Virus record (IMG/VR): IMGVR_UViG_2880366365_000011
Length of the DNA stretch: 64,000 nt
From: a virus
Lineage: Duplodnaviria > Heunggongvirae > Uroviricota > Caudoviricetes
Reading direction: 5' to 3' (one strand)
Shown here: piece by piece, positions 54,001-57,000 of the stretch
Position numbering within the stretch: the stretch's first letter is position 1
Layout: each line of letters starts with the position of its first letter
Made by a program: the position numbers

Positions 54001-57000
54001 ACCGCCTGCGGGTCACCTTCGGGGTGCAGTCACTGTTGGAGACCACCTCAAAGGGCGACCGTAATCACTCTTCTGTCCGACTGCTGATTCAGTTGCAGCG
54101 TAACGGTAACTGGGTGACGGAAAAGGATGTCACCATTAACGGCAAGACCACCTCGCAGTTTCTGGCGTCGGTGATTCTGGATAATCTGCCTGAGCGGCCC
54201 TTTAACATCCGGATGGTCCGGGAGACAGCGGACAGCACCTCGGACCAGCTGCAGAATAAGACGCTCTGGTCGTCATACACCGAAATCATCGATGTGAAAC
54301 AGTGCTACCCGAACACGGCGATTGTGGGGCTGCAGGTGGATGCGGAGCAGTTTGGCGGTCAGCAGATGACGGTGAACTACCATATCCGCGGTCGCATCAT
54401 CCAGGTACCGTCAAACTATGACCCGGAAAAACGCACGTACAGCGGCATCTGGGACGGCAGCCTGAAACCGGCATACAGCAACAACCCTGCCTGGTGCCTG
54501 TGGGACATGCTGACCCACCCGCGCTACGGAATGGGAAAACGCCTGGGGGCGGCGGATGTGGACAAGTGGGCGCTGTATGCCATTGCGCAGTACTGCGACC
54601 AGACGGTCCCGGATGGTTTCGGGGGCACAGAGCCGCGGATGACTTTCAATGCGTACCTGTCACAACAGCGTAAGGCGTGGGACGTTCTCAGTGATTTCTG
54701 CTCGGCGATGCGCTGTATGCCGGTATGGAACGGGCAGACGCTGACGTTTGTGCAGGACCGTCCGTCAGATGTGGTGTGGCCCTACACCAGCAGTGATGTG
54801 GTGGTGGATGATAACGGCGTGGGGTTTCGCTACAGCTTCAGCGCCCTGAAGGACCGCCACACGGCGGTGGAGGTGAATTACACCGACCCGCAGAACGGCT
54901 GGCAGACCTCCACGGAACTGGTGGAAGACCCGGAAGCCATACTGCGCTACGGACGCAACCTGCTGAAGATGGATGCGTTCGGCTGCACCAGTCGCGGTCA
55001 GGCCCACCGTGCCGGGCTGTGGGTGATAAAGACCGGACTGCTGGAAACGCAGACGGTGGATTTCACGCTCGGGTCACAGGGGCTGCGTCACACACCCGGT
55101 GACATTATTGAAATCTGTGATAACGACTATGCCGGGACCATGACCGGCGGACGTGTCCTGTCCATCGATGCCGCCAGCCGCACGCGCAGTACTGCGACCA
55201 GACGGTCCCGGATGGTTTCGGGGGCACAGAGCCGCGGATGACTTTCAATGCGTACCTGTCACAACAGCGTAAGGCGTGGGACGTTCTCAGTGATTTCTGC
55301 TCGGCGATGCGCTGTATGCCGGTATGGAACGGGCAGACGCTGACGTTTGTGCAGGACCGTCCGTCAGATGTGGTGTGGCCCTACACCAGCAGTGATGTGG
55401 TGGTGGATGATAACGGCGTGGGGTTTCGCTACAGCTTCAGCGCCCTGAAGGACCGCCACACGGCGGTGGAGGTGAATTACACCGACCCGCAGAACGGCTG
55501 GCAGACCTCCACGGAACTGGTGGAAGACCCGGAAGCCATACTGCGCTACGGGCGCAACCTGCTGAAGATGGATGCGTTCGGCTGTACCAGTCGCGGTCAG
55601 GCCCACCGTGCCGGGCTGTGGGTGATAAAGACCGGACTGCTGGAAACGCAGACGGTGGATTTCACGCTCGGGTCACAGGGGCTGCGTCACACACCCGGTG
55701 ACATTATTGAAATCTGTGATAACGACTATGCCGGGACCATGACCGGCGGACGTATCCTGTCCATCGATGCCGCCAGCCGCACCCTGACACTGGACCGTGA
55801 GGTGACCCTGCCGGAGACCGGTGCCGCCACGGTGAACCTGATTAACGGCAGCGGTAAGCCGGTGAGCGTGGCCATCACTGCACACCCCGCGCCGGACCGG
55901 ATACAGGTCAGCACCCTGCCGGATGGCGTGGAGACATACGGTGTGTGGGGGCTCTCCCTGCCGTCACTGCGTCGTCGCCTGTTCCGCTGTGTCTCCATCC
56001 GGGAAAACACGGACGGCACCTTTGCCATCACGGCAGTGCAGCACGTACCGGAAAAAGAAGCCATCGTGGATAACGGGGCGCACTTTGACGGCGACCAGAG
56101 CGGCACCCTGAACAGCGTCATCCCTCCGGCAGTGCAGCACCTGACGGTGGAGGTGAGTGCAGCTGACAGCCAGTATCTGGCGCAGGCGAAATGGGACACG
56201 CCGCGGGTGGTGAAGGGCGTGCGCTTCAGTCTGCGCCTGACCAGTGGAAGCGGTCAGGACAGCCGTCTGGTGACCACCGCCATCACTGCGGATACAGAGC
56301 ATCGTTTCAGTGGTCTGCCGCTCGGGGAATACACCCTGACAGTCAGGGCAATTAACAGTTATGGCCAGCAGGGGGAACCGGCCATCACCACCTTCCGGAT
56401 TAACGCGCCAGCAAAACCCGCCACCATTGAACTGACGCCGGGGTATTTTCAGATAACGGCGGTACCGGTGCTGGCGGTGTATGACCCGACGGTGCAGTTT
56501 GAGTTCTGGTTTTCGGAAAAACGCATCACGAACACGGCACAGGTGGAAAAATCTGCCCGTTATCTGGGGAGCGGCAGTCAGTGGACTGTCCAGGGAAGCC
56601 GGATTAAGCCGGGGACGGATTTCTGGTTTTACGTGCGCAGCGTCAACCTGGTGGGGAAATCTGCGTTTGTGGAAGTCAGCGGGCAGCCCAGCAATGATGG
56701 TGAAGGGTATCTGGAATTTTTCCGGGAAAAAATAGGAAAACTGCATCTGGCTCAGGGGCTATGGGAGCTGATAGACAACAGCCAGCTTGCGGATGAGATG
56801 GCGGAGATGAAGACCACCATCACGGAAACCCGCAATGAAATCACACAGACGGTCAGTAAAACGCTGGAGAACCAGAGCGCCACTATACAGCAGATACAGC
56901 GCGTGCAGAAGGACACAAATGATGACCTGGCTGCGCTGTACATGCTGAAGGTTCAAAAAACGAAAGACGGCATTCCCTATGTGGCCGGGATTGGTGCAGG

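Follow-up and report, generated by a model that had tools for sequence, protein, structure and literature searches.

The closest described relative of the element discussed here is prophage Sp11 of Escherichia coli O157:H7 Sakai. Asadulghani et al. (2009) found that the int and repressor genes of Sp11 are disrupted and that the prophage shows no excision, packaging or transfer; all of its morphogenesis genes, including those for the portal and for host specificity, were scored intact (PMC2669165). The same study established that defective O157 prophages are able to complement each other (PMC2669165). Sp11 and Sp12 lie in tandem at ydfJ and, to go by the citation of Chen et al. (2013) in PMC9997748, tandem prophages at this site are hot spots of deletion and segment replacement.

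A second point of reference is the tandem duplication that inactivates a gene and is later lost. In the pneumococcal type 3 capsule gene cap3A, phase variation by tandem duplication within the open reading frame and its precise excision was reportedly described by Waite et al. in 2001, and known cases of the cap3A type are said to involve short duplications that recur with varied end points and that, where a visible phenotype is selected, switch very frequently. The deletion rate for 0.6-kb tandem repeats in E. coli is about 1e-5 to 1e-4, far lower than for large tandem duplications. Large duplications are lost at high rates (PMC7661048).

Prophage B and its other lesions

The DNA analysed here is a window of 64,000 nucleotides from IMG/VR virus record IMGVR_UViG_2880366365_000011, to which all coordinates refer. 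Comparison with E. coli O157:H7 TW14359 gave 99.995% identity over 20.8 kb, with J identical. Two related lambdoid tail modules are present in the window, A at 3-16604 and B at 42230-60769. The prophage that contains module B adjoins a truncated ydfJ and encodes three NleG effectors and a DinI-like gene; its Sakai orthologue is annotated Sp11, with nleG2-3, nleG6-2 and nleG5-2 and an intact J of 3480 nt (ECs_2161). Prophage B is an Sp11-type lambdoid prophage integrated at ydfJ in O157:H7 clade 8, and this prophage end at ydfJ is found in 264 genomes. The J gene of the neighbouring prophage (copy A) is identical to nt 396-1511 of prophage B J apart from one base, and the listed O157 records hold 7-12 J-like places per genome, with several intact J paralogues in each.

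Apart from J, prophage B carries a frameshifted portal gene and a truncated exodeoxyribonuclease VIII gene (Table 1). No integrase was found among the left-end open reading frames checked (22230-24007 and 25248-26981), which fits the disrupted int reported for Sp11 (PMC2669165).

Table 1. Coordinates of the J duplication and of associated features in the window.
Feature	Coordinates	Strand	Remarks
J N-terminal fragment	53673..55241 (ORF open from 53460)	+	522 aa from the ATG at 53673: J aa 1-503 plus 19 out-of-frame residues
J C-terminal ORF	55238..57751	+	837 aa: J aa 323-1159
Unit 1 of the duplication	54585..55183	+	J nt 913-1511; haplotype A368/C401/G570
Unit 2 of the duplication	55184..55782	+	Haplotype G368/T401/A570, the resident Sp11-J type
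Novel junction, ...GCCAGCCGCAC joined to GCGCAGTACTG...	55170..55197	+	Blunt join without microhomology; diagnostic of the duplication
J of the neighbouring prophage, copy A (Sp12 position)	10198..13458	+	Single unit at 11110-11708
Prophage B portal gene	42648..44746	+	Frameshift giving 42648-44012 and 44009-44746; inactivating lesion independent of the J duplication
Truncated exodeoxyribonuclease VIII, left end of prophage B	22763..24007	-	414 aa, against positions 1-409 of an 877-position profile; below cut-off
NleG6-2-type effector gene	60829..61458	+	Derived SNP A at 60883, defining a 21-genome subclade

Structure of the duplication

A preliminary description had reported a head-to-tail repeat of 599 bp in J of prophage B, dividing the gene in two because its length is not a multiple of three, and a single unit in copy A. 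Self-comparison of the window at an offset of 599 showed the coordinates to be exact, although the copies are not perfect: 596 of the 599 positions agree (99.5%), and the three mismatches are A/G at 54953 (offset 368 of the unit), C/T at 54986 (offset 401) and G/A at 55155 (offset 570). An adjacent repeat of this length and identity cannot have arisen by chance. At period 599 the match extends for exactly 599 positions and the adjoining bases differ at either end, leaving zero microhomology at the junction. The program find_repeats lists the pair, its reported length being limited to 300 nt. The maximum period of TRF is 500, so the unit lies outside the range of that program.

Because 599 equals 3 x 199 + 2, the frame of J shifts past codon 503 at the junction, and the two predicted open reading frames are both present, as is the one unit of copy A. 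Removal of either unit in silico leaves a frame of 3480 nt whose only stop codon is at its end, encoding a J protein of 1159 aa. The further claim that deletion of one unit repairs the frame was thereby borne out, and is matched by one isolate nested in the duplication clade (see below). The comparison with sister strains that had been proposed likewise agreed: the orthologous J genes of Sakai, Z885 and strain 139 each have one unit and are intact. Orthologous alleles were identified with queries anchored in the locus. Synthetic single-unit queries, considered earlier as proof of orthologous single-unit alleles, were rejected for that use, as their matches are mostly paralogous J genes, for example that of the tccP/espJ prophage of 644-PT8.

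The J protein and its two fragments

Restored J aligned by phmmer to lambda gpJ in the PDB (8iyk_J) over residues 1-835 against 1-836 (E=0, 1713 bits), and all six gpJ domains (FNIII-A_GpJ, Phage-tail_3, Ig_J, Ig_J_second, Phage_Tail_Tip and Ig_GpJ_C) scored above the Pfam cut-offs. The gene follows L, K and I and precedes lom and the side tail fibre gene, as annotated by PGAP in TW14359 and in Sakai Sp11. Judged from sequence, restored J is clearly a homologue of lambda gpJ, the tip attachment and host-specificity protein. The uninterrupted reading frame expected of gpJ is absent from the window, where J consists of two open reading frames.

By Pfam, the N-terminal fragment holds FNIII-A_GpJ and a complete Phage-tail_3 domain, and the C-terminal frame holds Phage-tail_3, Ig_J, Ig_J_second, Phage_Tail_Tip and the receptor-binding Ig_GpJ_C. 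The duplicated unit corresponds to aa 305-504, nearly exactly the Phage-tail_3 domain (aa 330-498), with one full copy in each fragment. The start of the C-terminal frame overlaps the stop of the N-terminal fragment in an ATGA at 55238-55241. In TW14359, PGAP annotates the two parts as pseudogenes, "host specificity protein J, missing C-terminus" and "phage tail tip protein, missing N-terminus". This marking of both halves in RefSeq was already known; the duplication, its spread in clade 8 and its reversion appear to be undescribed, literature searches having found no published account of any of the three.

Distribution of the junction in clade 8

A 60-bp probe across the junction matched 64 of 5,426 complete E. 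coli genomes, always in the chromosome. The genomes that carry it include TW14359, EC4115, SS17, SS52, JEONG-1266 and RM6067W, together with Argentine, New Zealand, Japanese, UK and Turkish isolates. Among the closed clade-8 genomes of Table 2 of PMC9997748, the junction was found in all 34 that are present in the collection (the 35th, 2010C-3142, lies outside it), and the junction-positive clade-8 genomes span all five named subgroups, 8_30, 8_31A, 8_31B, 8_32 and 8_33. A 30-mer of the junction, GCCGCCAGCCGCACGCGCAGTACTGCGACC, was present in three of three duplication-bearing loci and in none of four single-unit loci (seven loci tested). Only one junction type was seen among the duplication-bearing genomes. 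Taken together, these comparisons suggest a single, old and vertically inherited event that is apparently clade-8-wide.

Tandem repeats longer than short reads can in principle be mis-assembled, and the preliminary description had itself raised the prospect of a falsely expanded repeat. That the duplication is an assembly artefact of this kind is hardly credible. The 64 complete assemblies with the junction are independent of one another and originate from numerous laboratories and countries, one traced assembly having been built from nanopore reads, and the three differences between the units are consistent across genomes. The TW14359 and EC4115 assemblies presumably date from the Sanger/454 era, so that several sequencing platforms are probably represented among the junction-positive assemblies. 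Moreover, the units have diverged in a lineage-specific manner: an A45T substitution and a 1-nt deletion are confined to unit 1, which would be impossible for a false copy.

Probable exchange between the units and paralogous J genes

The differences between the units bear on how the duplicated allele has changed. The G,T,A haplotype of unit 2 is that of Sakai ECs_2161, strain 139 and isolate FSIS11705876 at the same sites. The A and C alleles of unit 1 are found in copy A and in other paralogous J genes. The sodC-prophage J of TR01 has all three alleles (A,C,G) together and shows no difference from unit 1 between offset 207 and the end of the unit, and a 60-mer with the G570 allele was matched in the J genes of 504 genomes. 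An origin of the three mismatches by point mutation after the duplication was considered and rejected, as all three alleles pre-exist in paralogues; because they do, the differences are best read as the outcome of gene conversion. Individual genomes depart from the common arrangement in the same manner, with unit 2 converted to A,C in 26_141088 and to G570 in AR-0427, unit 1 bearing A570 in strain 272, and a paralogue-type patch in unit 2 of 2017C-4109. Since the duplication, sequence would have passed between the two units and also between them and the 8-12 paralogous J genes of each genome.

Paralogue-type sequence also extends upstream. Compared with Sakai, the clade-8 J is of paralogue type throughout its 5' 1.1 kb, and the switch point lies somewhere in the interval from unit offset 206 to 368. 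A mosaic joint at the right end of the unit, that is, the boundary of divergence between J of copy A and of prophage B, was considered; this was rejected, the two being about 99-100% identical for a further 290 nt beyond the unit, to about J nt 1800. Two routes to the present allele may be envisaged: either the 5' part was replaced, a plain duplication followed, and unit 1 was then converted, or everything goes back to one misaligned repair event with a paralogous J as template. The blunt junction without microhomology points to an illegitimate, homology-independent join, and joining of this kind would have produced the 599-bp duplication in J.

Secondary decay of the duplicated allele

Twelve duplication-bearing loci were sampled and aligned for later changes. 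A 1-nt deletion in unit 1 (CCC to CC near offset 196; delta-C196) is present in 6 of the 12 alleles, giving a second frameshift, and A45T was found in unit 1 only, in 7 of the 12. In addition, PGAP flags further frameshifts in the C-terminal part of J in 26_141088 and CEC96047.

A probable natural revertant

When the synthetic single-unit query included the allele-specific 5' end of J, it gave one single-piece match, at 99.8%, in FSIS11705876. This genome has the same prophage at ydfJ, with the same portal frameshift and the same L, K, I and NleG proteins as TW14359, and over 20 kb its differences from the window amount to only 6 substitutions and 3 indels. Its J is nevertheless intact, with 3480 nt encoding 1159 aa and a single unit identical to unit 2; J nt 395 is C, the paralogue type.

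Two markers flanking J, linked to one another, place the isolate; the placement rests on these rather than on a core-genome tree. FSIS11705876 carries the derived A at 60883 in nleG6-2, as do the TW14359-type genomes. The outgroups Z885 and strain 139 have the ancestral G, as do the 7 further duplication-bearing loci that cover this position. Another 453 genomes, including Sakai and EDL933, were matched by the probe with one mismatch to the A-form 60-mer. The derived nucleotide was found in exactly 21 genomes, and the 20 others besides FSIS11705876 are all junction-positive. The indel state at 53570, between I and J, agrees with this grouping, being shared by FSIS11705876 and the TW14359-type genomes. 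With 20 of the 21 marker genomes keeping the duplication and FSIS11705876 nested among them, parsimony favours the loss of one unit, and the isolate is likely a natural revertant. The loss may have come about by a crossover between unit 1 and unit 2 upstream of offset 368, or by repair with a single-unit paralogue as template. Nanopore reads underlie the assembly, and Pilon polishing drew on MiSeq reads (PMC6841976); the single unit may instead reflect a collapse in assembly or polishing.

Other markers in the locus, namely the L allele and T45 and delta-C196 in unit 1, show homoplasy. AC-5 was considered as a second revertant and set aside: its prophage is another one, chimeric and ending in nleA, and has a frameshifted J of its own.

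Switch, split gene or pseudogene

The preliminary description had proposed that the duplication is an on/off switch operated by recombination. In a fuller form of this reading, the duplication persists because reversible loss and gain of a unit turns production of the tail-tip protein on and off, for prophage B or in trans for the other lambdoid prophages of the cell. Some of what such a switch would call for is present. The units are 599-bp direct repeats, and so precise deletion of one of them is possible; homologous recombination of one unit with the other could bring this about, as could repair templated by a single-unit paralogue. Deletion of this kind repairs the open reading frame, one natural isolate in the clade has a restored J, direct repeats of 599 bp are good RecA substrates, and tandem duplications are generally unstable (PMC7661048). 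A role in trans for other lambdoid prophages also has a precedent in the ability of defective O157 prophages to complement one another (PMC2669165). However, the duplication is retained in 64 consensus assemblies and across all five clade-8 subgroups, with one loss identified, within the marker subclade, where 20 of 21 genomes keep it. The sole junction type corresponds to a single ancient OFF event and gives no sign of recurrent ON-to-OFF events, unit 1 has acquired its second frameshift in half of the sampled alleles, and several intact J paralogues are already present in every listed O157 genome. The prophage is dead in other respects as well, with no integrase found, a truncated exodeoxyribonuclease VIII and a broken portal gene that is also broken in FSIS11705876. 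A phase-variation switch of the tail-tip protein, in the functional or selected sense, is therefore very unlikely. A deletion rate of about 1e-5 to 1e-4 for 0.6-kb repeats fits rare reversion without any dedicated mechanism.

A different proposal would keep J functional as a split gene, in which translational coupling through the ATGA overlap and a complete domain copy in both halves would yield a working tip. The full Phage-tail_3 domain in each fragment and the overlap itself speak for this. Against it, neither half appears to be maintained, the N-terminal fragment being cut short by delta-C196 in 6 of the 12 sampled genomes and the C-terminal part bearing the further PGAP-flagged frameshifts in 26_141088 and CEC96047. 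The ATG in question is codon 323 of J and occurs in every J allele, which makes the overlap a by-product, and the hub of lambda gpJ is formed by a single chain (8iyk). That the two halves work together as a split gene is most improbable. The wider reading, in which the duplication reversibly locks a host-range determinant that recombination in the clade-8 prophage pool can reopen (with J acting in trans or passing by gene conversion to sister prophages) or the coupled halves form a working tip, is very unlikely.

The lesions accumulated outside J, the vertical inheritance through five clade-8 subgroups and the later damage to unit 1 are instead those of a pseudogene in a decaying prophage. It is quite probable that the locus records a single old duplication in J within prophage decay, and that its reversibility reflects the generic instability of tandem repeats and not a regulated or selected switch. 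The duplication would abolish tail-tip formation by prophage B and would be selectively neutral to the host. It is, in short, a clade-marking and pseudogenising duplication that is reversible in principle.

Implications

In practical terms the junction provides a simple structural marker that is apparently clade-8-wide, detectable as an amplicon longer by 599 bp across Sp11 J, and it could complement SNP typing of an O157:H7 clade linked to severe disease. The J locus is also a compact natural record of the fate of a tandem duplication among many paralogues, including its persistence over the history of the clade, patchy conversion, secondary decay and one apparent precise reversion. For annotation, it illustrates that a single reversible event can lie behind a pair of RefSeq entries flagged "partial in the middle of a contig". 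The view of Sp11 itself is unchanged: it is a grounded prophage that is of value to its host for the NleG effectors. The overall significance is modest.

Comparison with known systems

With lambda gpJ (8iyk), restored J has in common the alignment over residues 1-835, the Pfam architecture and the gene order I-J-lom-tail fibre. Set against both lambda gpJ and Sakai ECs_2161, the clade-8 J has an extra 599-bp unit and is split. The 3' 1969 nt of J are identical to those of ECs_2161, and the ydfJ locus with nleG2-3, nleG6-2 and nleG5-2 is common to both, whereas the 5' 1.1 kb is a different allele of paralogue type, with 43 + 11 differences.

The decay of defective O157 prophages described by Asadulghani et al. 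(2009; PMC2669165) concerns the same element at the same locus, and the J lesion adds one more inactivating mutation to it; unlike prophage B, Sakai Sp11 has neither the J duplication nor the portal frameshift. The recombination of the Sp11-Sp12 tandem takes place at the same ydfJ locus, and here the J lesion is accompanied by gene conversion among paralogues.

The logic of cap3A, in which a direct duplication within the open reading frame inactivates the gene and precise loss of a copy restores it, is found again in J: the duplication is direct, lies in the reading frame and disrupts it, and precise loss of one unit repairs the gene, with one likely natural case. In contrast to cap3A, J has one ancient junction in every clade-8 genome checked, secondary decay, and one likely reversion among the 21 genomes of the marker subclade. 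Retention of the duplication in 64 genomes, the one loss in that subclade and the one junction type argue against frequent switching. On every feature tested, the J duplication fits the decay of a prophage pseudogene.

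Fragments of J and their carriage in other genomes

In prophage B, the Sp11-type lambdoid prophage at ydfJ, the stop codon of the N-terminal fragment of the tail-tip gene J overlaps the start of the C-terminal ORF as ATGA. The duplicated unit (aa 305-504) lies close to the boundaries of the Phage-tail_3 domain (aa 330-498), so that both fragments of J retain the whole domain. In NE122 (L014, NZ_CP038319.1 2090697-2105356) the duplicated J resides in a chimeric prophage having tccP/espJ in place of NleG/ydfJ at its right end, and the junction between the units occurs twice in this genome; the J duplication has moved along with inter-prophage recombination. 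In two Japanese genomes, 26_141088 (L008, 7812-10380) and CEC96047 (L015, 7331-9899), the C-terminal part of J measures 2569 nt rather than 2568 and is flagged by PGAP as frameshifted, the extra nucleotide being due either to continued decay or to a sequencing error in a homopolymer.

Copy A compared with prophage B

Copy A, the lambdoid tail module at the Sp12 position, aligns with prophage B from A 2434-9935 (B 44174-51663), and the match restarts at A 10198 and B 53673. Approximately 1.6 kb of B's tail module (A 9935-10198 vs B 51664-53295), comprising the L 3' end, the entire K and most of I, is missing from copy A, a loss that leaves copy A tail-defective as well, through a lesion other than that of B. 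The portal is a single ORF (859 aa) in copy A, containing about 3.7 in-frame tandem 162-bp units that are 88-92% identical, whereas in B, where the counterpart of this array is one unit, a frameshift divides the gene. PGAP likewise annotates the portal as frameshifted in both TW14359, the genome that this DNA matches, and FSIS11705876, the isolate with an intact J. Differences among closely related clade-8 genomes are concentrated in short patches of the side tail-fibre gene, a pattern that would be expected of gene conversion with paralogues and not of point mutation.

Coordinates of features in and around the two tail modules
Feature	Location	Position
Portal-region ORF	copy A	421-3000
162-bp array	copy A	1947-2540
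Array counterpart	prophage B	44174-44292
Divided portal gene	prophage B	42648-44012 + 44009-44746
ATGA overlap	split J	55238-55241
Side tail-fibre gene		58477-59796
Patches of clustered differences	side tail-fibre gene	58662-58680, 59009-59020, 59565-59748
IS66-family + IS256-family transposase genes	between prophages A and B	18535-21760
Truncated exodeoxyribonuclease VIII	start of prophage B	22763-24007
398-bp direct repeat	either side of prophage B	21795-22192 + 62328-62725

Flanks of prophage B

No integrase was found at the start of prophage B among the left-end ORFs checked (22230-24007 and 25248-26981). The perfect 398-bp repeat, which lies in each prophage at the end carrying the DinI-like gene, provides a ready substrate for loss of the entire prophage B, and such a role agrees with the Sp11-Sp12 deletions reported in work cited in PMC9997748.
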